A DNA stretch of 45,940 nucleotides, from the sequence record DRR723986_8621, one strand, 5' to 3'. The translations under genes and the position numbers were made by a program. The notes beneath the pieces are model-generated. The model was not told the origin of the DNA. It made no database searches and saw nothing but the letters and a program-made list of their open reading frames with translations. Below are positions 783 to 43,173 of the stretch, piece after piece; the stretch's first letter is position 1, and every line of letters begins with the position of its first letter.

Positions 783-1367
783 TTGCCTCGTATCACGTGG
801 ACCCCCGTCCTGCTGCTAGCCGGCCTGTTACTGCAGGCCTGTAGCAGCGCCCCGCAGGAAAGCCAGGTACCGCTGGATCCCAATGCCGTGCCGGAGCTCA
901 CGCTCAACCTGCCTGGTGAAGGCGGCTGCAACTGCGTAGACCAGGAGCAGCGTGACTACACTTTCCTGGAGCGCGGCTACAGTGCCCTGGCGCTGGGCGA
1001 ACACATCGATGCGGTGGAGTATTTCGAAAGCTACCGGCGCCTGGAGAAAACTCCCGAGGCGGCTTGGGAGGCTGACATGGCCATTGCGTTTATCAGCATG
1101 CTGCCCTCAAGCCCCTTCTACGATACCCGCGCGGCACGCAAAAGCTTTGTCAGTCTGGACGCGGCGCTGACAGCCAATCCGGATATGCAGGTGCACAACA
1201 AGGCCATCATCATGCGCGAGGCCCTGGAGGCAATGGTGATCATGGACCGTCATATTGCGGATCTTGAAAATGCCAACGCCACCCTCAAGGACGATCTGGA
1301 GAAGCGGGAAGAAGCCCTCAAGCGGCTGCGTGAGCTAACTCTGGGTCAGCGGGGAGCACGAGAGTAA
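783..1367 (+). CDS. Hypothetical lipoprotein with a TPR-like helical region and C-terminal coiled coil
   Basis: Start moved from GTG 741 to TTG 783 because of the AAGGAGG SD. This gives the signal peptide [20 protein letters not shown] (lipobox LQAC). The C-terminus has a heptad pattern ([28 protein letters not shown]). Confidence 0.75.
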
Positions 1368-2847
1368 AGGTAGCACCTTCTCCCGGTGCGCTGGTGACGG
1401 AGATCGTCCCACCCATCATCTCGCAGTAGTCACGGCAGATCGCCAGACCGAGACCGGTGCCGCCGTAGTTGGCGCTGGTCGAGGAATCCGCCTGGACAAA
1501 GGCTTCAAACACCCGCGCCTGCTGCGCCTTTGTCATGCCGATCCCGGTATCCTGCACCGAGAACCGGAACCAGCCTTCACGGCCCTCAACCGGCCCGGCG
1601 GCGAGACTGATATACCCCTTGTCGGTGAATTTGCAGGCATTGCTGAGCAGGTTGACGAAGATTTGCCGAAACTTGGTGGCATCGTTGTACAGGGCCGGCA
1701 GCTCGGACAGGTCAGGCAGCTGCAGCACGTTACCGCTTTCCCGCAACAGGGGTTCCAGCGATTCACAGACCTGATTGACGATTTCCCCGGGATGGAAGCT
1801 CTCACAGTGCAGTGACATCTTGCCAGTCTCGATCTTGGACAGGTCGAGGATGTCGTTGATCAGCGACAGCAACTGCCGTCCGGAGCGGATAATCTTGTCC
1901 AGGTCGCGCTGGAACTGGCTGCGATCGACCTCGTTGCTATCGTCCAGTTCGTCATGCAGCATCTCGCTGTAACCGATGATGGCATTCAGCGGCGTGCGCA
2001 GTTCGTGGCTCACGTTGGCCAGGAAGATACTCTTGGCGGCGTTGGCCTCGTCCGCAGAATCCTTGGCCTGTTGCACGTCGTAGATGGCGTTGCGCAACTT
2101 GTCCGACATGGTATTGAAGGCGCCGGCGAGATCCCCCAGTTCGCCGTCATCATCGATATTGTCGATACGGAAGTTTAGGTCGCCGCTGCCGAAACGTTCG
2201 GTGCCTCGCTTGAGGCGCTTGAGCGCCGTATTGGTATAGCGCACCAGGAAGAAGCCGAGCATGGCGGTGAGGAAAATCGACGCGAAAAAGCCGATGACGG
2301 TGATGCGGTCGGTGAGGGCGATGGTCCGGTCGATGATGTTGGCGCGCTGCACCGAGATAAATGCCTGGCGTTGTTCCAGTTCTTTCAGGCGCTGGCTTGC
2401 CTCCAGGTAGGGAATAGGGTCATCGACGTCCGGCTCAAAGCTGGGGTCGTTATAGTTTCGGTAGAAGGCGGACCAGCTATCGAGCAGGGCGCCGCTGCTG
2501 GTGGACAGCCGCTGGTACTGCAGCTCTGTAACATCGGGGCTGAGGGTGCCGAGCGCGCGAACCTTGCTGCTTATGGTGTCGATATCAGTAATCGCCTGCG
2601 CCAGTTCCTGCGCGTCGAGCTGGTCCTCGGTGGTCTCGCGCAGGGTCGCCAGCACCAGGATCTGCTGGCGCTGGGCGTCGAGCAACTGCTCCACTTCGGC
2701 GGATAACTGGGCGGCTTTCACCGCATCGCGGTAGGCCACCATACTCTCGTTCCGCGCGAAGCTGCCCCAGAAATGGGTGCCGACGTTGACCGCGAACAGC
2801 ACCAGGATGGTGAACAGGGAGAGAGTAAGGCGTCGACGCAAGCTCAT
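1318..2847 (-). CDS. Membrane sensor histidine kinase (TM-periplasmic-TM-HAMP-HisKA-HATPase)
   Basis: Two hydrophobic segments; HAMP ([15 protein letters not shown]); H-box [19 protein letters not shown]-box [11 protein letters not shown]1 DTGIGM; F-box FEAFVQAD; G2 GGTGLGL. Confidence 0.95.
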
Positions 2848-3218
2848 GCGCGGGTCAGCTTCTCGATCTTGATCAGCAGTCCGGGGAAATCGATGGGCTT
2901 GGTGGCATAGTCATCGCAGCCGGCATCGAGGGCGCTGAGCCGGTCCGCTTCCATGGCGTGGGCGGTAAGGGCGATGATCGGGATATGGGCGATGCTCTCA
3001 TCCTCCCGCGCCCGCCGACAGGCCGTCCAGCCATCCATCACCGGCAGGTTCATGTCCATCAGCACCACCGATGGCTGGTGGCTGCGCATCTTGTCCAGCG
3101 CCTGCTGGCCATCTTCCGCCGGGATGACGTCGATGCCCGCCCGGTTCAGTCGCCGGATCAGCATGTCCCGGTTGAGTTCGTTGTCCTCGACCAGCAGGAC
3201 GGGGCCCTTGTTGCTCAT
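2844..3218 (-). CDS. Single-domain response regulator (DivK-like receiver)
   Basis: VLLVEDN, phosphoacceptor [16 protein letters not shown] and KP motifs. It has 4-bp overlaps with both neighbouring genes. Confidence 0.93.
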
Positions 3219-4690
3219 GCCAGCGGCGCCTCGATTCGGTGGACCACAACCATCTGGTTGATGCCCTTGACCTTGAGTTCCCGGCTGTCGAGGACCTGGT
3301 AGGGACTGGTCAGCTTGGCCAGGGTCGCATCGGATACGAGGATTTCCCCGCCCTCGCTGAGGTCCTCGATGCGTGAGGTCAGGTTCATGGGGTGGCCGAC
3401 GAAGCCGTATTTGCTGCGTCTTTCGGAGCCGATATTGCCGGCGATAACCTTGCCGGTGTTCAGGCCGATGCCGGTGGCGATTGCGGGCAGGCCCTCGGCT
3501 TCATTCTCCCGGTTGATGGCAGCCATGGCCGCCTGCATCTCCAGGGCGCAGCGGACTGCGCGCTCGGCGTCATCCTCGCGTCGCTGGGGTGCGCCGAACA
3601 CCGCCAGGATGGCGTCGCCGATGAATTCGTCGATGGTGCCCTGATGGGCCAGGATGATGTCGGTCATCGCGCCCAGGTAGCGGTTGAGCATGGTCACCAC
3701 CTGGGCCGGTGCCAGGTGTTCGCTGAGGGTGGTGAAGCCGCGGATATCCGACATCATGATGGTGACCTCGCGCAGATCGCCGCCCAGCTCCAGGCCTTCG
3801 GGGCGCTCCAGGATATCGGTAACGATCTCGTCGGACAGGTAGCGACCGAAGGTAGCGCGGATGAATTTTTCGTTGCGCTCCAGCTGCTGGCGATACTGCT
3901 CTTCCCGGTCGTGCCAGCGCTTGCGCTCGATGCCCGCCTTGATCCGGGCCTGCAACAGTACCGGGTTGAACGGCTTGAACAGGTAATCATCGGCCCCGGC
4001 CTCGATGCACTCGATGATGCCATCCATGTCCTGGCGCCCGGAGATCACGATTACCGGGGTGGCGCGCCACTCCGGGTGCTCTTTGATCCGGCGCAGGACT
4101 TCGCGCCCGTCCATCCCGGGCATGACCAGGTCAAGCAGCACCACGTCGACATCGGATTCGTCCAGCGTGGCCAGCGCTTCCTCGCCGCTGGCCGCGGTGA
4201 CCACGAAATGGCCGCTGCGGGACAGGTAGCGGGCCACCAGCTCGCGATTCTCCTGCAGATCGTCCACGGCGAGGATGAAACCGGGCTCCGAGTTGATGGA
4301 GCGTCGTTCGGCGGCGCTGTCGGGCGCGGTTTCCTCGCTGTGCGCGGTATGCACCGCTTTCACCAGGCGTGCCAGGTTGTCTGCCAGTGGCTGGTTCTCG
4401 GGGCCGAGATCTTCCTGCAGCATTTCGGCATAGCCGCGGATCGCCGCCAGCACGTTCATCAGGTCGTGGGTAGAGGCATCCGACTGTGGACCTGCGAGCA
4501 AGCCTTCAAGGCGGGTCGCGCCCTCGAACAGGTGGCTGAAGTCGTCCCGGGCGGCCTCATCCAGCCGCTCCTCGGCGCTGCTGAACAGGTCCCTCAGCTC
4601 CGCGATCGCGCGCAGCAGGACGTCACTCCACAGGGTGTTGGCCTGGGTATCGCTGGTCGTCACTGGCTTTGTGGCGCTCCGCTTTTTCAA
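3215..4690 (-). CDS. Receiver-fused class III nucleotide cyclase with an N-terminal DHp-like segment; probable guanylyl cyclase (start codon uncertain)
   Basis: REC domain (AVDD, LLDLVMP, KP). Cyclase motifs MSDIRGFT, IDEFIGD, GNIGSERRSKYG, NLTSR and KVKG. Confidence 0.92.
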   Translation of the reverse strand: MKKRSATKPVTTSDTQANTLWSDVLLRAIAELRDLFSSAEERLDEAARDDFSHLFEGATRLEGLLAGPQSDASTHDLMNVLAAIRGYAEMLQEDLGPENQPLADNLARLVKAVHTAHSEETAPDSAAERRSINSEPGFILAVDDLQENRELVARYLSRSGHFVVTAASGEEALATLDESDVDVVLLDLVMPGMDGREVLRRIKEHPEWRATPVIVISGRQDMDGIIECIEAGADDYLFKPFNPVLLQARIKAGIERKRWHDREEQYRQQLERNEKFIRATFGRYLSDEIVTDILERPEGLELGGDLREVTIMMSDIRGFTTLSEHLAPAQVVTMLNRYLGAMTDIILAHQGTIDEFIGDAILAVFGAPQRREDDAERAVRCALEMQAAMAAINRENEAEGLPAIATGIGLNTGKVIAGNIGSERRSKYGFVGHPMNLTSRIEDLSEGGEILVSDATLAKLTSPYQVLDSRELKVKGINQMVVVHRIEAPLA

Positions 4691-4855
4691 TATCGAGAGT
4701 ATAACGAGGCGAGCAGAGCTGTGGAAACGCTGAAGTTGTTCGTTTCATTGATCAGGAAGCGGATAAACGCCGGCGAAAGGTACGCAGTTCGGCGTGTTTG
4801 GGTTATTATCGGTGCCGAGCTAAAGGACAAGGCTTTGCACAGGGCGGGTTCGTAC

Positions 4856-5503
4856 ATGTTGCAGCAAGTAGAAATATTTCAGGGGCTCTCTCAGGAGGAG
4901 CTGGAGGCCCTGTCAGCCAGTAGCACCAATCGCTCCTTCCCCAAGAATACCGTGGTCATCCATGAGAATGATCCCGCGGACTCCCTGTTCGTGATCGAGA
5001 GCGGTAAGGTCAAGGTGTACTGCAGCGACAAGAACGGCAAGGAGTTCATCATGAACACCCAGGGCGCCGGCGACTACTTTGGCGAACTGGCCCTGCTGGA
5101 CGACTCCACCCGCTCGGCGTCGGTACGTACGGTTGAGAAATCCTCCTTCTGCATCATCTATAAGGAAGACTTTAACCGGGTACTCGATGAGCACCCGAAT
5201 ATCGGCCGCAAGCTGATCCGCAACCTCGCCCAGCGGGTGCGCAAGCTGACGGCAGACGTCAAGAGCCTCGCCCTGCAGGACGTGTATGGCCGGGTGGCCA
5301 ATGTACTGATGGACCTGTCGGAAGAGCGGGGCGATGGCACTCTGTACATTCCCGAGAAGCTGACCCAGCAGGACATCGCCGACCGGGTGGGAGCCTCCCG
5401 GGAAATGGTGGCACGTATCCTCAAGGACCTGACGATCGGCGAGTACATTCGCTTCGAGGGTCGGCATATCATCATCAATACGCGGCTGCCGGCCAAGTAC
5501 TGA
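4856..5503 (+). CDS. CRP/FNR-family transcriptional regulator (cNMP-binding domain + HTH)
   Basis: The real start is ATG 4856 inside the 703-aa ORF. Phosphate-binding cassette FGELALLDDSTRSA; HTH TQQDIADRVGASREMVARILKDL. Confidence 0.93.
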   Translation: MLQQVEIFQGLSQEELEALSASSTNRSFPKNTVVIHENDPADSLFVIESGKVKVYCSDKNGKEFIMNTQGAGDYFGELALLDDSTRSASVRTVEKSSFCIIYKEDFNRVLDEHPNIGRKLIRNLAQRVRKLTADVKSLALQDVYGRVANVLMDLSEERGDGTLYIPEKLTQQDIADRVGASREMVARILKDLTIGEYIRFEGRHIIINTRLPAKY

Positions 5504-6911: not shown

Positions 6912-6932
6912 GATTAGCGAGTGTGGAGTTTA

Positions 6933-6962
6933 TTTACCTGGGGCAACGCAAAGATTTATAAT
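6933..6962 (+). promoter_or_regulatory. Putative sigma70 promoter of guaBA
   Basis: Perfect TATAAT at 6957-6962 with a TTTACC -35-like hexamer at 6933-6938. Confidence 0.5.
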
Positions 6963-7001
6963 TGCACGTTTAACCTCGACCCGCCAGCCGGAGACGCCTG
7001 T

Positions 7002-8471
7002 ATGTTGCGCATCGCCCAGGAAGCCCTGACATTTGATGACGTTCTTCTGCTGCCCGGCTTTTCCGACGTGGTGGCGACCGATGTGTCACTGCGCACCCGG
7101 CTAACCCGCGGGATTGACCTGAACATCCCGCTGGTATCCGCGGCCATGGATACCGTCACCGAATCCCGGCTGGCTATCGCCCTGGCCCAGGAAGGCGGTA
7201 TCGGTATCATCCATAAGAGCATGACCATTGCCGAGCAGGCCGAGCAGGTACGCAAGGTCAAGAAATTCGAAAGCGGCGTGGTCAAGGACCCGATTACCAT
7301 CCAGCAGGATGCGACCATCGGCGAGCTCACCGAGATTACCGCAGCGCACGGCATCTCCGGGCTGCCGGTGCTGGATGGTGAGGACCTGGTCGGTATCGTG
7401 ACCCGGCGTGACCTGCGTTTCGAATCCAATCCCCTGAAGCGGGTGTCTGAGGTCATGACGCCCCGCGACAAGCTGGTAACGGTCAAGGAGGGCGCCAGCA
7501 CCGAGGAAGTCCAGCGCCTGCTGCACCAGCACCGGATCGAGAAGATCCTGGTGGTGAATGACAATTTTGACCTGCGCGGCATGATCACGGTGAAGGACTT
7601 CGACAAGGCCGAAAGCTTCCCCGACGCCTGCAAGGATTCCTATGGCCAGCTGCGGGTAGGTGCCTCGGTTGGTACCAGCCCCGATACCGATGACCGGGTC
7701 GAGGCATTGGTGCGCGCCGGGGTGGACGTGCTGGTGGTCGACACTGCCCACGGCCACTCGAAGAACGTGATCGACCGGGTGCGGATGATCAAGGCAGACT
7801 ACCCATCGATCCAGGTTATCGGCGGCAATATCGCCACCGCGGCAGCGGCGTTAGCCCTGGTGGATGCCGGAGCGGATGGCGTCAAGGTCGGTATCGGCCC
7901 CGGGTCGATCTGCACCACCCGGATTGTTACCGGCACCGGCGTACCGCAGATCACGGCGATAGCCAACGTGATGGAAGCGCTGCGCAACACCGATGTGCCG
8001 ATTGTCGCCGATGGTGGGGTGCGCTTTTCCGGTGATGTCGCCAAGGCGATCGTTGCCGGTGCGCATTCGGTGATGATGGGCAGTATGTTCGCCGGTACCG
8101 AGGAAGCGCCGGGCGAGGTCGAGCTCTACCAGGGTCGGACCTACAAGGCCTATCGCGGCATGGGTTCGCTGGGCGCCATGTCCCAGACCCAGGGTTCTTC
8201 GGATCGCTATTTCCAGGATGCGAGCAAGGGCATGGAAAAGCTGGTGCCGGAAGGCATCGAAGGCCGGGTGCCCTACAAGGGTCCGGTCTCGGCGATCATT
8301 CACCAGCTCATGGGTGGCGTTCGCTCCGCCATGGGCTATACCGGCAGTCGCGACATCGAAACGATGCGCAGCCGGCCGGAATTCGTGCGGGTCACGGCAG
8401 CGGGCATGTCCGAAAGCCACGTACACGACGTATCGATTACCAAGGAAGCGCCGAATTACCCGGTCAGGTAG
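7002..8471 (+). CDS. guaB: IMP dehydrogenase
   Basis: Start [16 protein letters not shown] at ATG 7002; CBS pair; catalytic [11 protein letters not shown]. Confidence 0.98.
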
Positions 8472-8522
8472 CCTTGACCGGGCCGTCCGGCCCTCACACA
8501 GCGCTTAGCATCGGGAAATTCA

Positions 8523-10100
8523 GTGACCGCAGACATCCATGCCCAGAAAATTCTCATCCTGGACTTTGGCTCCCAGTACACGCAGTTGATTGCCCGCCGG
8601 GTGCGCGAGGTTGGCGTATACAGCGAGATTCGTGCCTGGGATATGCCGGAGGCGGAAATCCGGGAGTTCAACCCCAGCGGGCTGATTTTGTCCGGTGGCC
8701 CCGAATCGGTTGCCGATCTGGACTCACCCCGGGCCCCGGCCTGTGTGTTCGAGCTGGGTATCCCGATTCTGGGTATCTGCTATGGCATGCAGACCATGGC
8801 CGAGCAGCATGGTGGCAAGGTCGCCTGTTCCAATGTCAGCGAGTTTGGCTACGCCCAGATACGGCAGGTCGGCAACGGCGGCTTGCTGCACGATATTCGT
8901 GACCATATAGATGCGAACGGCAGGGGCTTGCTCGATGTCTGGATGAGCCACGGCGACAAGGTCGTAGAGCTGCCTGAGGGCTTTGAAGTCATCGCTGAGA
9001 CTGACAGCTGCCCGATCGCCGGCATGGCGCACCGGGAGAAGCCCTGGTTCGGTATCCAGTTCCACCCAGAGGTCACCCATACCCTGCAGGGCAAGCGTAT
9101 ATTCGAGCACTTCGTCCAGGAGATCTGTGGCTGTGAAGTGCTCTGGACCCCGGCCAATATCGTCCAGGACGCTATTGACCGGGTCCGGGAACGGGTTGGC
9201 GGTGACAAGGTGCTGCTGGGACTGTCGGGGGGTGTTGATTCCTCGGTGGTGGCCGCGCTCCTGCATCGGGCAATTGGCGACCAGCTGACCTGCGTGTTCG
9301 TGGATAACGGCCTGCTGCGCCTGCACGAGGGCGACCAGGTGATGGACATGTTCGCCCGCAACATGGGCGTGAAGGTTATTCGCAGCGACTCCGAGGAACT
9401 GTTCCTGTCGCGCCTTGCCGGGGTCGCCGACCCGGAACAGAAGCGCAAAATCATCGGCAATACCTTCATTGAGGTGTTTGATACCGAGGCGGCCAAGCTG
9501 CAGGAGGTCAAGTGGCTTGCCCAGGGCACCATCTACCCCGATGTGATCGAATCCGCCGGCGCCAAGACCGGCAAGGCCCACGTGATCAAGTCCCATCACA
9601 ACGTCGGCGGCCTGCCCGACGATATGGCCTTTGAGCTGGTCGAACCACTGCGTGAACTGTTCAAGGACGAGGTGCGCCAGATCGGCCTGGAACTGGGCCT
9701 GCCCTACGACATGGTGTATCGCCACCCGTTCCCGGGCCCGGGTCTCGGGGTGCGCATCCTCGGCGAGGTGAAGAAGGAGTACGCGGAGCTGCTGCGTCAG
9801 GCAGATGCGATCTTTATCGAGGAACTGCATGCCGCCGACTGGTACCAGAAGACCAGTCAGGCCTTCGCCGTGTTCCTGCCGGTCAAGTCCGTCGGCGTGG
9901 TGGGAGATGGTCGCCGCTATGAGTACGTGATTGCCATCCGTGCGGTAGAGACGGTCGATTTCATGACCGCGCGCTGGGCGCACCTGCCCTACGAACTGCT
10001 GGAAAAAGTATCCAACCGTATCATCAACGAAATCTCTGGCGTGTCGCGGGTGACCTACGACATCAGCAGCAAGCCGCCGGCGACGATTGAGTGGGAATAA
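8523..10100 (+). CDS. guaA: GMP synthase (glutamine-hydrolysing)
   Basis: [36 protein letters not shown]-terminal KPPATIEWE. Confidence 0.98.
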
Positions 10101-24472: not shown

Positions 24473-25876
24473 ATGAAGAGCCCCCTCGGTTTTAAACAGT
24501 CCAGACTCAGTGCCGCAATCGGCTTCGCGGCGATCATGCTCGGCAGCGGTACCGCGCTGGCGCAGCCTGCAGTGGTAACGGAGGCGACAGAGGAAGCCTT
24601 CCAGGCGGCCCTGAGTTCGGGAGCCCGGGAGATTGTTATCGCCACCGAAGGCCCTATCGTGATCGACGACACCCTGACCTACGATGGTGATGATTCCCTG
24701 TCCATTTATGGTGCAGGTCAGACCATTGAGGCTGTGGCCGATGTCACCCTGTTGGAAGTCAGCAACGGCGCCAACCTCACGGTAGTTGGTCTCAACTTCC
24801 AGGGCCTGGGTGGCTTCGATATCGACAACCAGGGTAATGGCAAGGGTATCTTTGTCGACGTGCGTGACAACCAGAATGGGCTGGTCAAGCTCGTTCTAAA
24901 GGATGTTGCCGTGCGCGATGTGGCCAACCACGGGATACATGTGTCCGATTGTGACCTCGCCGATGATTGTGGTGGCGGCAGTGGCGGCTCAGGTGGCGGT
25001 TCATCCGCGTCGATTGTGGTCGAACTGACTAATGTCACCGTCGAAAACGCGGGTACCGGCAGGTTTGATGCCGACGGTGTGCGCGTGGATGAACGGGCCA
25101 ACGGGAATATCCTGTTTCGGGCCGACGGCTCTGTGTTTACTGGCGTTGGTGCCGACGGGGTAGAACTTGACGAAGGCCAGAACGGTATCGTCGAGGCGAT
25201 CGTCAGCAATAGCAAATTCAACAATAACGGCAGCTACTGCGCGCCGGTGGCGGAGTTTGCCGGGGAGCGTAAGGACATTCCCGCAGGTGAGCTCACGGTC
25301 GCGGAGTTCGAGGACACGATTGTCCCCTCCGGCACGGCAGATGATCGCTGCTTCGAAGTTGAATTCGACACCCATGAAGACGGCACGATCAGCGACTATG
25401 AGGTCGCGCTGGACCTGGACGACGGCTTCGATATCGATGAGGCCGGCAACGGCGGCCTGAGGGCGCGGGTGTTTAACTCCGAGGTGCTCGACAATGATGA
25501 TGAGGGCCTGGATTTTGACGAGGAAGACAACGGTCCGATCGATCTGGTGGTGGTGAATACCAATGCCTCCATGAACACGGATGACGGCATCAAGCTGTCC
25601 GAGGAGGATAGCGGGTATGTGCAGGTCCTGTTGCTCTCGGTACAGGCCATGGATAACGGCGGCAAGGGGTTTGTCTTCGAGGAAGCCGATGCGGGTGATC
25701 TGGACGCCACTGTTGAGGGTAGTGCAACCGCCGGCAATGATGGTGGTGATGTGGGTGTCGAGGCGGTGCAGGAAGACCAGGGTGTCGGCCTGCTGACTCT
25801 GCGCAACACAACGGTCGAAGAAACCGACAAGCAGGACGGCGTTGACGTCGACGGTGTTGAGCTGGTTGTTGACTAA
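24473..25876 (+). CDS. Secreted, highly acidic hypothetical protein; probable right-handed parallel beta-helix
   Basis: Sec signal peptide ending ALA-Q; GGAG SD. Repeated DG(V/F/L/I)x(V/L/I/F)(D/S)E motifs with N/G/V beta-helix-like periodicity. Confidence 0.75.
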   Translation: MKSPLGFKQSRLSAAIGFAAIMLGSGTALAQPAVVTEATEEAFQAALSSGAREIVIATEGPIVIDDTLTYDGDDSLSIYGAGQTIEAVADVTLLEVSNGANLTVVGLNFQGLGGFDIDNQGNGKGIFVDVRDNQNGLVKLVLKDVAVRDVANHGIHVSDCDLADDCGGGSGGSGGGSSASIVVELTNVTVENAGTGRFDADGVRVDERANGNILFRADGSVFTGVGADGVELDEGQNGIVEAIVSNSKFNNNGSYCAPVAEFAGERKDIPAGELTVAEFEDTIVPSGTADDRCFEVEFDTHEDGTISDYEVALDLDDGFDIDEAGNGGLRARVFNSEVLDNDDEGLDFDEEDNGPIDLVVVNTNASMNTDDGIKLSEEDSGYVQVLLLSVQAMDNGGKGFVFEEADAGDLDATVEGSATAGNDGGDVGVEAVQEDQGVGLLTLRNTTVEETDKQDGVDVDGVELVVD

Positions 25877-32009: not shown

Positions 32010-33140
32010 ATGATGACCGAGTCCCCGATCAAGCGACGCAAAAGCCGGCAGATCCATGTTGGCAATGTGCCTGTGGGCGGCGATGCACCGATCAGCGTGC
32101 AGAGCATGACCAATACCGAAACCTGCGACGTCGATGCCACGGTTGCCCAGGTGAAGGCCATCCAGGAGGCCGGTGCCGACATTGTGCGAGTCTCGGTGCC
32201 CAGCATGGAGGCCGCAGAGGCCTTCCGTGAAATTCGAGCACGGGTCGACGTACCGCTGGTTGCGGATATCCACTTTGACCACAAGATAGCCCTCAGGGTG
32301 GCCGAATACGGGGTCGATTGCCTGCGCATCAACCCGGGCAATATCGGGCGCGACGACAAGGTGCGCGAAGTGATCGACAGCGCGCGGGACAAGGGTATAC
32401 CCATCCGCATCGGGGTGAATGCCGGCTCACTGGGCAAGGATTTGCAGCGCAAGTACGGAGAGCCCACAGCCGAGGCGCTGGTCGAGTCCGCGATGCGCCA
32501 CGTCGACATCCTCGACAAGTTCAACTACCCGGACTTCAAGGTCAGCGTGAAGGCCTCCGAGGTGTTCATGGCGGTAGAGGCCTATCGCCTGCTGGCCCGG
32601 CAGATCGATCAACCGCTGCACCTGGGAATTACCGAGGCCGGTGGCCTGCGCGGCGGTACGGTGAAGTCTGCGGTCGGCCTCGGCATGCTGTTGATGGACG
32701 GGATCGGCGATACCATCCGTATCTCGCTGGCGGCGGACCCGGTGGAAGAGGTCAAGGTCGGTTTTGAGATTCTCAAGAGCCTGAAGCTGCGCACCAACGG
32801 TATCAACTTTATCGCCTGTCCGAGTTGCTCGCGGCAGAATTTCGATGTCATCGGCACCATGAATGCCCTCGAGCAGCGGCTGGAGGATATTCGCACACCG
32901 ATGGACGTGGCGGTTATCGGCTGTATCGTCAACGGCCCTGGTGAGGCGCGGGAGGCCGATGTGGGCCTGACCGGCGCCACCCCGAACAATCTGATCTACG
33001 TGGCCGGGCAGCCCGACCACAAGGTCAGCAATGAGGATTTCATTGATCATCTCGAGCAGGTGATCAGGGACCGTGCCACCGTGCTGGAAAAGCAGCGCGC
33101 AGCGGACTCAGAACAGCTCATCGTCAAATCCTCTGTCTGA
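32010..33140 (+). CDS. ispG: (E)-4-hydroxy-3-methylbut-2-enyl-diphosphate synthase
   Basis: [39 protein letters not shown]. Confidence 0.98.
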
Positions 33141-33164
33141 GACAGGGATCACACTGGAGTAAGC

Positions 33165-37870: not shown

Positions 37871-38269
37871 GTGCCCGGTTCGAATGCCACGCCCGACCTG
37901 AACAGCCGTGAACACATCGAGCGCTTCGTCGACCTGTTCTATGGGCGCATGCTCAAAGACCCAGAGCTGGCGCCGATCTTTATCGACGTGGCCGGCATCG
38001 AGCTCGACGTCCACCTACCGCATATCAAGGACTACTGGTGCAAGCTGCTCCTTGGGGAGCAGGCCTACCGCCGGCACACGATGAATATCCATCGCCAGCT
38101 GCACGGCAAGCGCCCGCTGCAGGCGCAGGATTTCGATCGTTGGCTGGCGCTATTTACCCGCACGGTGGACGATCACTTTGCCGGGGAGCGCGCCGAGCGT
38201 GCCAAGCAGGTGGCGGCCTCGATTGCCGCCAATATGCAGAAGAGCCTGCCGGGCCGGGTCGAAGATTGA
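37871..38269 (+). CDS. Group III truncated haemoglobin
   Basis: FVDLFYGRMLKDPELAPIF, HLPHIKDYW, a proximal His, and FDRWLALF..TVD..F.GE.AE; 132 aa. Confidence 0.85.
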   Translation: MPGSNATPDLNSREHIERFVDLFYGRMLKDPELAPIFIDVAGIELDVHLPHIKDYWCKLLLGEQAYRRHTMNIHRQLHGKRPLQAQDFDRWLALFTRTVDDHFAGERAERAKQVAASIAANMQKSLPGRVED

Positions 38270-41274: not shown

Positions 41275-42137
41275 TGGAACAGATAATCGGGGCCACTGGC
41301 CTCAGGCGCAGTTTTGGTGATCTTCACGCGGTAGACGGGGTCGACCTGTCAGTAACTGCGGGGAGCGTAATTGGACTGATCGGACCTAACGGCGCAGGCA
41401 AGACGACCTTGCTACGGGCGCTGCTGGGGCTTACCCATTTTGACGGCGATGTCTCCGTGCTGGGGCGCGATCCACGGACCGAGCGTGCGCGGTTGATGGA
41501 AGAAGTGTGCTTCATAGCCGATACCGCGGTGCTGCCGCGCTGGATGCGGGTCGACCAGCTGCTGGACTATGTCACCGGCATCCACCCGCGCTTCGACCGC
41601 AGGCAGGCGGAGGAATTTCTGGCCACAACGGAAGTTACCCCGCGCCGCAGGGTGCGTGACCTGTCCAAGGGGATGACGGTGCAGCTGCATCTCGCTCTGG
41701 TTATGGCGATCGATGCGCGCCTGCTGATCCTCGATGAGCCCACCCTGGGCCTGGATATCCTGTTTCGCAAGCGCTTCTTCGAGCAGTTGCTCAACGATTA
41801 CTTCGATGACGAACGGACCATCATTATCTCCACTCACCAGGTGGAGGAGGTCCAGAATATTCTCACCGAGGTCATGTTCATGGACCGGGGCAAGCTGGTA
41901 TTGCAGCAGCCTATGGCCAACCTGGAAGAGGATTTCATCGAACTGCACGTGGTTGGCGACAAGGTTGCACAGGCGGAGTCCATCCCGCATGTCGGGGTCC
42001 GTAGCATCCTCGGTGGCAAGGCGATCATTTACGAGGGAGTGCCGCGCGACATGCTGGCCCAGCTCGGTGAGCTGCGCACGCCGTCCGTGTCCGACCTGTT
42101 CGTGGCCAAGGTAGGGGGGGAACATAACCATGGCTGA
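41274..42137 (+). CDS. ABC-2-type exporter ATP-binding protein
   Basis: Walker A GPNGAGKT, signature LSKGM, Walker B LILDEP, STH. Confidence 0.95.
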   Translation: MEQIIGATGLRRSFGDLHAVDGVDLSVTAGSVIGLIGPNGAGKTTLLRALLGLTHFDGDVSVLGRDPRTERARLMEEVCFIADTAVLPRWMRVDQLLDYVTGIHPRFDRRQAEEFLATTEVTPRRRVRDLSKGMTVQLHLALVMAIDARLLILDEPTLGLDILFRKRFFEQLLNDYFDDERTIIISTHQVEEVQNILTEVMFMDRGKLVLQQPMANLEEDFIELHVVGDKVAQAESIPHVGVRSILGGKAIIYEGVPRDMLAQLGELRTPSVSDLFVAKVGGEHNHG

Positions 42138-43173
42138 TAAATCACCGTCCCGCTATTTTTCGCTGGTGCAGCGGGAACTGCAGGAATACAAGAACTCCCT
42201 GTTCTGGACGCCGGTGGCGATTGCCATAGCGCTTACCGCTGTGATGCTGGTCAGCGTTGTGCTCGCCGGTCGGATCAGTGTCATGGGAGATGCGATCCTG
42301 CAGGTCCTGCTGTTAGAGGACACCGCCGGGGGTATGAATATTTCCATCCAGATCGATGAGGATGACCCCAGTGGTAACACCTACAGCTACACAATCGAGA
42401 CCGAGGAGTCCCTGGATGAAGAAGACTGGAACTTCTCCAGGGAGTGGAACTTCAACCCCACGACGAAGCCCAAGCTGGAGCAGGAGCTCGATGACCGGGT
42501 CGATACCCTCAACCCGATGCTGAACGTTCTGCACAGTATTCTCGTGTTGGTGTTGCTGTTCGTCACCGTCAACTACCTGCTGGGTACGCTTTACGATGAC
42601 CGCAAGGACCGCAGTTTCCTGTTCTGGCGCTCGCTGCCGGTGTCAGAGTGGGAGGAAGTTCTTTCCAAGCTGTCTGTCGCGCTGATTGTTGCGCCCACCG
42701 TGTTTATCGCCCTGAGTCTGCTGATGCAGCTGGCCTACATACTGCTGGCCATGCTGCTGGTGTGGCGCATGGACATGAACCCGCTGCAACTGGTGCTCGG
42801 CAACATCGAGTTCGGCAGGCTGCTGTTTGACCAGATATCCGGCTGGGTGCTGACAGCCCTGTGGGTCGCTCCGCTGTACGCCTGGCTGCTGCTGGCGTCC
42901 GCAGCAGCGCGTCGCTCACCTTTCATGTTCTCGGTAGCGCCGGTGATCGGTGTGATCCTGCTGGAGGAGTTCTTCCTGGGAACAGCCGTAGTGCGCACTG
43001 CCATCGCCAATCACATGCCGCACTACACGGACGGCGGAAGTTCGGTGGGTTTTTACTTTACCGGTGTCGACTGGGGCTCGGTCAACTATCTCAGGATCCT
43101 CTCCGGCCTGGTGTTCACCGCTCTGGCACTGTGGTGCACAGTGTTGCTGCGGCGCTATCGCTGGGAGATCTGA
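42130..43173 (+). CDS. ABC-2-type exporter permease
   Basis: About six TM segments; YDDRKDRSFLFWRSLPVS..E.VLSK motif; overlaps the ATPase gene. Confidence 0.85.
   Translation: MADKSPSRYFSLVQRELQEYKNSLFWTPVAIAIALTAVMLVSVVLAGRISVMGDAILQVLLLEDTAGGMNISIQIDEDDPSGNTYSYTIETEESLDEEDWNFSREWNFNPTTKPKLEQELDDRVDTLNPMLNVLHSILVLVLLFVTVNYLLGTLYDDRKDRSFLFWRSLPVSEWEEVLSKLSVALIVAPTVFIALSLLMQLAYILLAMLLVWRMDMNPLQLVLGNIEFGRLLFDQISGWVLTALWVAPLYAWLLLASAAARRSPFMFSVAPVIGVILLEEFFLGTAVVRTAIANHMPHYTDGGSSVGFYFTGVDWGSVNYLRILSGLVFTALALWCTVLLRRYRWEI

Follow-up and report, generated by a model that had tools for sequence, protein, structure and literature searches.

The window analysed here, the whole stretch of 45,940 nucleotides from sequence record DRR723986_8621, carries at positions 1318–4690 of its minus strand an operon that appears to encode a phosphorelay with a guanylate cyclase of the Synechocystis Cya2 type as its output, and the divergently oriented crp gene beside it is the likely receptor of the cyclase product. 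The probability of this combined reading is put at roughly 0.55. The original prediction, made from the DNA letters, had placed five genes in this region, and the listing of open reading frames (ORFs) together with Pfam scans located all five at the coordinates it gave; the 4-bp overlaps that it described at both junctions of the operon are also present, and both consist of ATGA. Cyclase homologues with at least 74% identity were found in Halioglobus, Seongchinamella, Parahaliea, Pseudohalioglobus and metagenome-assembled genomes (MAGs) of Halieaceae, and the window is therefore attributed to a Halieaceae-like gammaproteobacterium. The components of the system are as follows, with residue numbers of the cyclase counted from TTG 4690.

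1318–2847, minus strand: membrane sensor histidine kinase, 509 amino acids; Pfam HAMP 200–252, HisKA 271–342, HATPase_c 389–501

2844–3218, minus strand: stand-alone receiver, 124 amino acids; Pfam Response_reg 7–118

3215–4690, minus strand: response-regulator cyclase, 491 amino acids from TTG 4690; 482 amino acids from GTG 4663, the more probable start

4340–4558, minus strand: N-terminal helical H-box domain of the cyclase (residues 45–117), HisKA-like and without an ATPase domain; His75 at 4466–4468

3941–4279, minus strand: receiver domain of the cyclase (residues 138–250); acceptor Asp187

3224–3787, minus strand: class III catalytic domain of the cyclase (residues 302–489); Glu355 at 3626–3628, Gly429 at 3404–3406

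4691–4855, no strand: divergent spacer between cyclase and crp, 165 bp with TTG 4690 and 192 bp with GTG 4663

4856–5503, plus strand: CRP/FNR-family regulator, 215 amino acids; Pfam cNMP_binding, HTH_Crp_2 and Crp

The cyclase is itself a response regulator, in which a kinase-less HisKA-like domain, a receiver and a linker helix precede a class III cyclase domain of the Cya2 type. Pfam matched HisKA weakly at residues 74–108, Response_reg at 139–250 (E 6.5e-30) and Guanylate_cyc at 307–480 (E 1.2e-28), and the AF2 (AlphaFold2) model, with a mean predicted local distance difference test score (pLDDT) of 90.9, contains helices at 13–42, 45–66, 74–94 and 97–117, a receiver fold at 138–250, a long linker helix at 243–281 and a cyclase fold at 302–489. 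The receiver and cyclase models were matched by all 62 aligned family members and HisKA by 41 of them at E≤1e-3 (best 9.7e-30), with canonical-looking H-boxes in the distant ones. HATPase_c was not among the seven families matched across the 62 members, which implies that the cyclase is not a kinase. On sequence grounds the N-terminal domain appears to be a HisKA relative, and it would serve at most as a phosphotransfer or phosphatase module. Residues H75, G86, Y87 and E89 of this domain are at least 90% conserved in the 62 sequences, which reach down to 37% identity. The receiver domain, whose best match outside the cyclases is PleD, has its acidic pocket and conserved residues in place (D143, D144, D187 and K239), and D144, D187, K239 and P240 are invariant in the same alignment.

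The nearest solved structure to the catalytic domain is that of Cya2 (2w01), which aligns without gaps at 187.6 bits; the corresponding scores are 120.2 bits for Pseudomonas aeruginosa CyaB and 102.2 bits for Spirulina CyaC. The fold match to Cya2 has 48% identity, a root-mean-square deviation of 1.1–1.3 Å and a template modelling (TM) score of 0.90–0.92 on the target. All eight active-site residues named for Cya2 (D448, R450, E488, D492, G562, N569, R573 and K608; available text of PMC6005667) have counterparts at the same spacing, namely D315, R317, E355, D359, G429, N436, R440 and K475. The metal-binding aspartates D315 and D359, the transition-state residues N436 and R440 and the phosphate contacts R317 and K475 are invariant or at least 90% conserved among the 62 sequences, and the Lys-Tyr preceding the specificity glycine is also shared with Cya2. 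The pair of residues that specifies the base is Lys-Asp or Lys-Thr in adenylate cyclases and Glu-Gly in Cya2 (available text of PMC6005667); in an engineered adenylate cyclase chimera (6fht) lysine occupies the glutamate position, and the Glu-to-Lys exchange was used to convert Cya2. The window cyclase thus bears the Glu-Gly signature of the guanylate type and not that of the adenylate type, and in this respect the guanylyl cyclase assignment of the original prediction is borne out. It probably prefers GTP and would then make cyclic guanosine monophosphate (cGMP).

The window proteins were compared by tblastn with 80 related loci from one genome scan, 79 of which yielded a cyclase ORF. The specificity pair is E/G in 75 of these 79 cyclases, E/A in two, E/S in one and N/S in one, a share of E/G that is biased upward because the scan patterns came from this cyclase family. 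Among the best 150 receiver-cyclase representatives after clustering at 50%, E/G was found in 98, E/A in 15, E/S in seven, E/T in three and E/D in one, while two have glutamate with the second position unaligned, nine begin with lysine and 15 show other combinations. E/G is kept in all 26 cyclases whose locus also includes the crp gene (the CRP-linked loci).

These data bear on the alternative that the same architecture produces cyclic adenosine monophosphate (cAMP) or a mixture, with an ordinary cAMP receptor protein as the neighbour, as with cyanobacterial CyaC. Automatic annotations do place the cyclase in an "adenylate cyclase" family and call the regulator "cAMP-dependent", and Cya2 has an adenylate cyclase side activity, making cAMP at a lower rate, so that its preference for GTP is kinetic (available text of PMC4284465). 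In addition, the window regulator shares Arg-Ser with cAMP-binding CAP, and among solved structures it comes closest to two cAMP-binding proteins, mycobacterial CRP and GlxR. Against this, Glu-Gly stands in place of Lys-Asp or Lys-Thr in every one of the 26 CRP-linked loci; nine of the 150 relatives carry lysine, so the residue is free to change and yet has been kept here, and the Glu-to-Lys exchange was the very change that turned Cya2 into an adenylate cyclase (6fht). The regulator, moreover, scores far below the canonical CRP cut-off (130.9 versus 266 bits). The cAMP alternative is accordingly regarded as unlikely.

The window kinase has two hydrophobic segments around a periplasmic region of ~150 amino acids, followed by HAMP, HisKA and HATPase_c, and Pfam detected neither a receiver nor an Hpt domain in it. 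Its best NCBIfam matches are hybrid-type kinases, all under the cut-off, and its sensor part resembles four-helix-bundle or CHASE3-like sensors by language-model features only, which makes this a lead. In the 21 Halieaceae-type loci the kinase has 503–556 amino acids and no receiver; in other loci it has 646–820. Eight of the nine long kinases scanned with Pfam are HAMP-HisKA-HATPase-receiver hybrids, the ninth (L037) giving no receiver match at E≤1e-6, and the tails that follow the receiver in the hybrid kinases resemble a second receiver that has degenerated. No Hpt domain was matched in the window proteins, in 59 ORFs of 12 related loci including nine partner kinases (E≤1e-6), or in the tails of six of the 13 long kinases (E≤0.01).

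The stand-alone receiver has a complete pocket (E11, D12, D55, T85 and K107), and none of D12, D55, T85 and K107 varies among 37 orthologues, which are 53–84% identical to the window protein and include Acidobacteriota and deltaproteobacterial loci. Its conservation in distant loci exceeds that of the cyclase (58% versus 40% identity in L070, 59% versus 40% in L049), a pattern that a carrier serving several partners would be expected to show. Its presence is tied to that of the H-box: with kinship ignored, a stand-alone receiver lies nearby in 35 of 39 loci with an H-box cyclase and in seven of 40 without one (Fisher 4e-11), and five of these seven exceptions are regex misses or truncated ORFs. 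When only the loci without CRP are counted, again with kinship ignored, the figures are 12 of 16 with the H-box and four of 37 without it (8e-6). Prediction of a complex of two copies of cyclase residues 15–135 with the stand-alone receiver scored 0.18 against a mark of 0.34, and counts neither way. The algal 2c-Cyclop requires His-to-Asp transfer to its receiver for guanylate cyclase activity (PMC6284317).

The chain that these components may form begins with a periplasmic signal that would alter the autophosphorylation of the HAMP kinase (H1). The phosphoryl group would pass to Asp55 of the stand-alone receiver (D1), from there to His75 in the kinase-less HisKA-like domain at the cyclase N-terminus (H2), and then to Asp187 in the receiver domain of the cyclase itself (D2). 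Phosphorylation would act through the linker helix at 243–281 and set the two catalytic domains of the dimer in a productive arrangement; the enzyme would convert GTP to cGMP, and cGMP would bind the CRP-family protein and change transcription. The four-step His-Asp-His-Asp order is put forward tentatively, at a little under even odds. The original prediction had described a simpler chain from kinase through receiver to cyclase; all three members are present, while the relay appears more elaborate than was supposed, as the cyclase carries a receiver and an H-box domain of its own.

A branched scheme is an alternative for this part of the pathway. The kinase would phosphorylate the cyclase receiver directly, the stand-alone receiver would act as a sink or modulator, and the HisKA-like domain would provide dimerisation or phosphatase activity. 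The residue four positions after the histidine in the window cyclase is Asn (H-D-L-M-N), and this position has a phosphatase role in 2c-Cyclop (PMC6284317); dimerisation is obligatory for class III cyclases, and a DHp-like bundle could keep the dimer together; and in lineages with hybrid kinases the receivers number three, which exceeds the requirement of a linear relay. Pure dimerisation, on the other hand, does not need the histidine that is at least 90% conserved across the family, nor does the scheme account readily for a stand-alone receiver whose occurrence follows that of the H-box domain and whose sequence is kept better than the cyclase's in distant loci such as L070. No Hpt domain was found that could serve the hybrid kinases instead, in the nine kinases and six tails scanned. 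The branched scheme is possible, at odds clearly below even, and the linear relay through His75 is taken as the simplest order.

The same arrangement recurs in other genomes. The order guaB-xseA-crp-cyclase-receiver-kinase-lysS was found in all 21 Halieaceae-type loci (L001–L020 and L024), whose titles name Halioglobus, Haliea, Pseudohalioglobus, Seongchinamella, Congregibacter and Halieaceae, as well as three MAGs named at higher rank. Identity to the window in these loci is highest for CRP (80–97%), followed by guaB (76–87%), the stand-alone receiver (63–83%), the cyclase (53–78%) and the kinase (51–75%). Five more loci from Cellvibrionales/Pseudomonadales MAGs, L022 (Oceanicoccus), L031, L033, L034 and L037, have xseA-crp-cyclase-receiver-kinase, with CRP 72–76% and the cyclase 44–47% identical to the window. 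The crp gene is divergent from the cyclase in all 26 of these CRP-linked loci; the xseA-guaB neighbourhood is kept in 25 of them (L037 is without guaB in the stretch compared) and lysS in 22. As 26 loci of other genomes share this order, the gene arrangement is not due to chance. The synteny that the original prediction proposed to examine for five genes therefore holds for crp, cyclase, receiver and kinase in 26 loci; it does not hold throughout for the lipoprotein gene, present in 17 of the 21 Halieaceae-type loci, nor for six operons that have no adjacent crp.

In the regulator, the phosphate cassette contains Glu and Arg-Ser, as in CRPs, and the recognition helix has the form R-E-x-x-x-R, whose Arg, Glu and Arg contact DNA in CAP (available text of PMC10187061). 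It scores 130.9 bits, below the 266-bit cut-off of the canonical CRP equivalog in NCBIfam (E. coli CAP / Vfr), and is therefore placed in a distinct CRP subfamily. The best matches among solved structures are to the cAMP-binding proteins mycobacterial CRP (114.7 bits) and GlxR (110.5 bits), and the next are Plasmodium cGMP-dependent kinase domains, ahead of E. coli CAP. Alignment to mycobacterial CRP places Leu-Thr at the base-contacting pair of the C-helix, which is kept in the orthologues; characterised CRPs have Thr-Ser, Thr-Thr, Thr-Asn, Leu-Asn or Ala-Asp at this pair (available text of PMC10187061). The use of Arg-Ser versus Arg-Thr as a marker for cGMP was considered and rejected, as the cAMP-binding mycobacterial CRP also has Arg-Thr. 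It is somewhat more probable than not that the window CRP is the receptor of the cyclase product.

A number of observations weigh against the combined reading, and several of them concern this receptor role. No accepted sequence signature separates cGMP-responsive from cAMP-responsive CRPs, and the Leu-Thr of the window protein differs from the Thr-Ser, Thr-Thr or Thr-Asn of characterised CRPs that respond to cyclic nucleoside monophosphates (cNMPs). No CAP-type palindrome (TGTGA-N6-TCACA, up to two mismatches) was found in the spacer at 4691–4855, and the whole window has eight such palindromes where 14 were expected, giving no regulon lead. With no sequence rule for the ligand and no palindrome in the spacer, the evidence for the receptor role is the gene neighbourhood. 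This neighbourhood is itself subject to two reservations, in that the operon of cyclase, receiver and kinase occurs without an adjacent crp in L021, L023, L026, L028, L030 and L051 (L038, which starts at the cyclase, was left out of this judgement), and that the 26 CRP-linked loci amount to about one ancestral event because they share a single chromosomal site and its flanks. The remaining points concern the enzyme and the relay. A homologue with 48% identity to Cya2 could be dual or biased towards cAMP, because Cya2 itself makes cAMP; the N-terminus of the window cyclase scores 20.2 bits against HisKA, below the 26.9 cut-off; the co-occurrence statistics for receiver and H-box ignore phylogeny; and the stand-alone receiver is hard to place where the kinase is a hybrid with a receiver of its own. 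Finally, no cNMP phosphodiesterase was found among the 36 window ORFs scanned, and the claim in the original prediction of a self-contained cGMP circuit could not be upheld.

Taken further, some of these points would lead to an alternative in which the operon is a cGMP or cNMP module, its receptor is encoded elsewhere, and the adjacent CRP is a strongly conserved global regulator whose place by xseA dates back to the common ancestor of these Cellvibrionales. A global regulator would be expected to be as well conserved as this CRP, which exceeds guaB and every operon protein in identity, and the constancy of the chromosomal position, the six operons without crp and the shared spacer without a CAP-like site all fit such a regulator. 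It is less easily reconciled with L037, in which three genes have come between xseA and crp while crp stays divergent from the cyclase. Other cNMP genes accompany modules of this kind in other phyla (13 of 54 loci, eight of them adjacent), and cyclase and effector genes are also adjacent in Rhodospirillum centenum and Xanthomonas. This alternative is held to be rather improbable, and CRP is kept as the candidate receptor.

The occurrence of other cNMP proteins was surveyed with a hidden Markov model (HMM) built from the cNMP-binding domains of related loci and run over all ORFs of the 80 loci. A cNMP-binding ORF was found in 39 loci; 26 of these ORFs are the CRP orthologues, and the other 13 lie among the 54 remaining loci, eight of them directly beside the cyclase module (a raw count, with no background rate set beside it). 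Since 13 of 54 loci without CRP carry other cNMP genes nearby, the pairing of cyclase and receptor genes is considered a recurrent theme. Those identified by Pfam include cNMP-patatin proteins in L023 and L070, a 276-amino-acid cNMP protein in L028, whose gene immediately precedes that of the cyclase, and in L025 a protein that has two cNMP domains and is encoded immediately upstream of the kinase. The phosphate cassettes of the neighbouring cNMP proteins are a mixture of Arg-Ser and Arg-Thr, with no common signature.

Several of these loci have features of their own. The proteins at L023:7430–9226 and L070:2680–4944 join their cNMP domains to a patatin-like phospholipase that has an NTE-type P-loop domain, and are possible cGMP-gated lipases. 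A large cNMP protein at L049:10983–13226 was detected only with the custom HMM. The genomes of L023, L070 and L049 are Wenzhouxiangella and Acidobacteriota-type MAGs. In L025 (1434–9424) and L029, both from deltaproteobacterial-type MAGs, the order is inverted, with a hybrid kinase, a stand-alone receiver and a HisKA-receiver-cyclase. In L025, the one of the two covered by Pfam, the kinase that follows the two-cNMP protein is a PAS-GAF hybrid in which two receivers were matched, and the N-terminus of the cyclase reaches 73 bits on HisKA; the order in L029 was derived from tblastn and ORF calls, and the custom HMM found no cNMP ORF there. Two further cyclase loci deserve mention. The cyclase ORF at L020:5319–7103 begins at the receiver, although tblastn matches residues 12–486, which suggests a frameshift or an assembly error in this MAG, and L027 has two receiver-cyclase copies 3 kb apart (2900–4015 and 7001–8116).

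Comparison with known systems showed that the parts of the locus are familiar. Cya2 (2w01) shares with the window cyclase a catalytic domain of 48% identity, aligned without gaps, and eight active-site residues including Glu-Gly. The resemblance ends there, since the CHASE2 sensor and transmembrane segments were not found at the window N-terminus, where Pfam matched a HisKA-like domain and a receiver instead; the window cyclase is therefore a relative of Cya2 by its catalytic domain only and not an orthologue. Cya2, as portrayed in the available source, is a CHASE2-transmembrane receptor cyclase, whereas the window enzyme has a separate kinase and receiver as partners. According to the available text of PMC10187061, Cya2 has no known cGMP receptor, whereas the window has an adjacent CRP gene.

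The nearest precedent for such a pairing is gcyB-gcyC-cgrA of R. centenum, in which guanylate cyclase genes lie by the gene of a cGMP-activated CRP (available text of PMC10187061). In R. centenum a single operon holds these genes, and its promoter contains a perfect CAP-type site (same text); the window crp is divergent, and no such site was found. CgrA also differs in having Arg-Thr and a longer nucleotide-binding domain, the window CRP having Arg-Ser, a comparison made by description. Two-component control, as proposed for the window locus, is not described for R. centenum in the available part of PMC10187061. A gammaproteobacterial cGMP pathway with adjacent genes for cyclase and cNMP effector is known from Xanthomonas campestris (XC_0250/XC_0249; PMC3770947). 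Its cyclase XC_0250 is a CYC-TPR protein without receiver control, and the effector XC_0249 is a cNMP-GGDEF diguanylate cyclase and not a transcription factor (PMC3770947). The guanine-binding Asn-Glu diad of Xanthomonas is stated to be specific to xanthomonad homologues (PMC3770947), and offers no general rule for telling cGMP receptors from cAMP receptors.

With regard to the control of the enzyme, 2c-Cyclop (rhodopsin-kinase-receiver-guanylate cyclase) also has a receiver directly upstream of the cyclase domain and is activated by His-to-Asp transfer (PMC6284317), and CyaC is reportedly phosphorylated and activated by a phytochrome-like kinase (available text of PMC4284465). 2c-Cyclop is a single fused polypeptide with a complete kinase, whereas the kinase and relay receiver of the window are separate and its cyclase has no ATPase domain. 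PleD and WspR, the latter with chains among the fold-search matches, similarly use a receiver to control a dimerisation-dependent nucleotide cyclase; their output domain is GGDEF and not class III, and their product is c-di-GMP. CyaC is a single polypeptide with a complete kinase and makes cAMP. The order of transfer proposed for the window has its models in Spo0F/Spo0B of Bacillus subtilis and in ChpT of Caulobacter, where phosphate passes from a stand-alone receiver to a kinase-inactive DHp-like carrier and on to a terminal response regulator. The carriers Spo0B and ChpT are separate proteins, while that of the window would form one polypeptide with the terminal response regulator.

The Cya2-type cyclase, the cGMP-activated CRP, the adjacency of cyclase and effector genes and the receiver-controlled class III cyclase are thus all known parts. 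What was not found described is their combination, kept across a marine family, in which the kinase and the relay receiver are separate proteins, the receiver-guanylate-cyclase carries a fused HisKA domain that lacks a kinase domain, and the CRP belongs to a subfamily of its own. The searched literature, including searches for Halieaceae with guanylate cyclase, held no description of this system, although proteins of this kind may already be catalogued by Rauch et al. 2008 and by Ryu et al. 2015, in the latter case as receiver-linked guanylate cyclases. The original prediction had regarded the circuit as not described in this lineage; this stands for the combination in the searched literature, and was too broad as a claim, cGMP signalling being known in the gammaproteobacterium Xanthomonas (PMC3770947).

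The remaining features of the locus concern its boundaries and its signals.

783–1367, plus strand: lipoprotein-like ORF, 194 amino acids, TTG start; no Pfam or NCBIfam family

4698–4727, minus strand: promoter-like element of the cyclase operon, TTTCCA or TCCACA, a spacer and TATACT

The lipoprotein-like ORF has an AAGGAGG Shine-Dalgarno sequence at 771–777, with the TTG start 5 nt after it, and a signal peptide ending in Cys. As the original prediction stated, it converges on the kinase gene, and the 3' ends of the two overlap by 50 bp (1318–1367); the scan reported no terminator-like hairpin in this overlap. Its homologues in the 17 Halieaceae-type loci are 39–57% identical, it was found in no other locus, and its resemblance to TPR proteins, seen in language-model features only, is a lead. 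The lipoprotein is probably not part of the system.

The divergent region is 165 bp long, as originally described, when the cyclase begins at TTG 4690, and 192 bp when it begins at GTG 4663. The latter (482 amino acids) is more probably the start than the former (491 amino acids), because the -10 hexamer of the promoter-like element ends at 4698 and the N-termini of the cyclase homologues align at residue 10 of the TTG-start protein. A scan for promoter consensus found two sites against 1.2 expected from shuffles, which is weak by itself. The pattern T[TA][CT]CAC-N17-TATACT is present in the window and, at the same place, in nine of the 26 related spacers, and a tenth spacer (L011) has a looser N15/TACACT form at another position. 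A plus-strand frame of 703 codons at 3392–5503 was considered as a gene and rejected, its last 215 codons being crp and the remainder antisense to the cyclase; such an open frame is a typical artefact of high GC content and could mislead gene callers.

The flanks consist of housekeeping genes, with lysS upstream and xseA, guaB and guaA downstream. The genes for GMP synthesis, guaB and guaA, at 6921–10100, lie 1.4 kb from the putative cGMP module, a proximity that is probably ordinary conserved synteny rather than a functional link. Elsewhere in the window, the best CAP-like palindrome, with one mismatch, is at 33138–33153, at the ispG stop and just upstream of hisS, and is probably meaningless because the count over the window lies below chance. 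No RNA family was found by Rfam across the whole window. At E≤0.01 the plus-strand ORF at 24473–25876 (467 amino acids) has no Pfam family and that at 42130–43173 (347 amino acids) has only a sub-threshold ABC-2 match, and a small bacterial-like (truncated) globin gene at 37871–38269 on the plus strand directly follows the der GTPase gene.

Very few cases of bacterial cGMP signalling have been worked out, namely Cya2, R. centenum and Xanthomonas. In the locus described here a Cya2-type cyclase comes together with an input that can be identified, a gene for a candidate receptor and a genomic context that is conserved, in an abundant marine family with cultured isolates, and the module is spread over many phyla. 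It would make three questions directly testable, namely how frequent cGMP is in bacteria, what separates a cGMP-CRP from a cAMP-CRP, and whether a HisKA domain that lacks a kinase domain can serve as a second histidine carrier when it is part of a response regulator. In the widest interpretation, which is speculative and on balance doubtful, Halieaceae and related marine Cellvibrionales would use cGMP as a global messenger, made under the control of a four-step relay with a fused second histidine carrier and read by a dedicated Leu-Thr CRP receptor of very high conservation, and the module would have been re-wired in other phyla, for example to cNMP-gated patatin-like lipases. If this were true, cGMP signalling in bacteria would be far more widespread than the few described cases.

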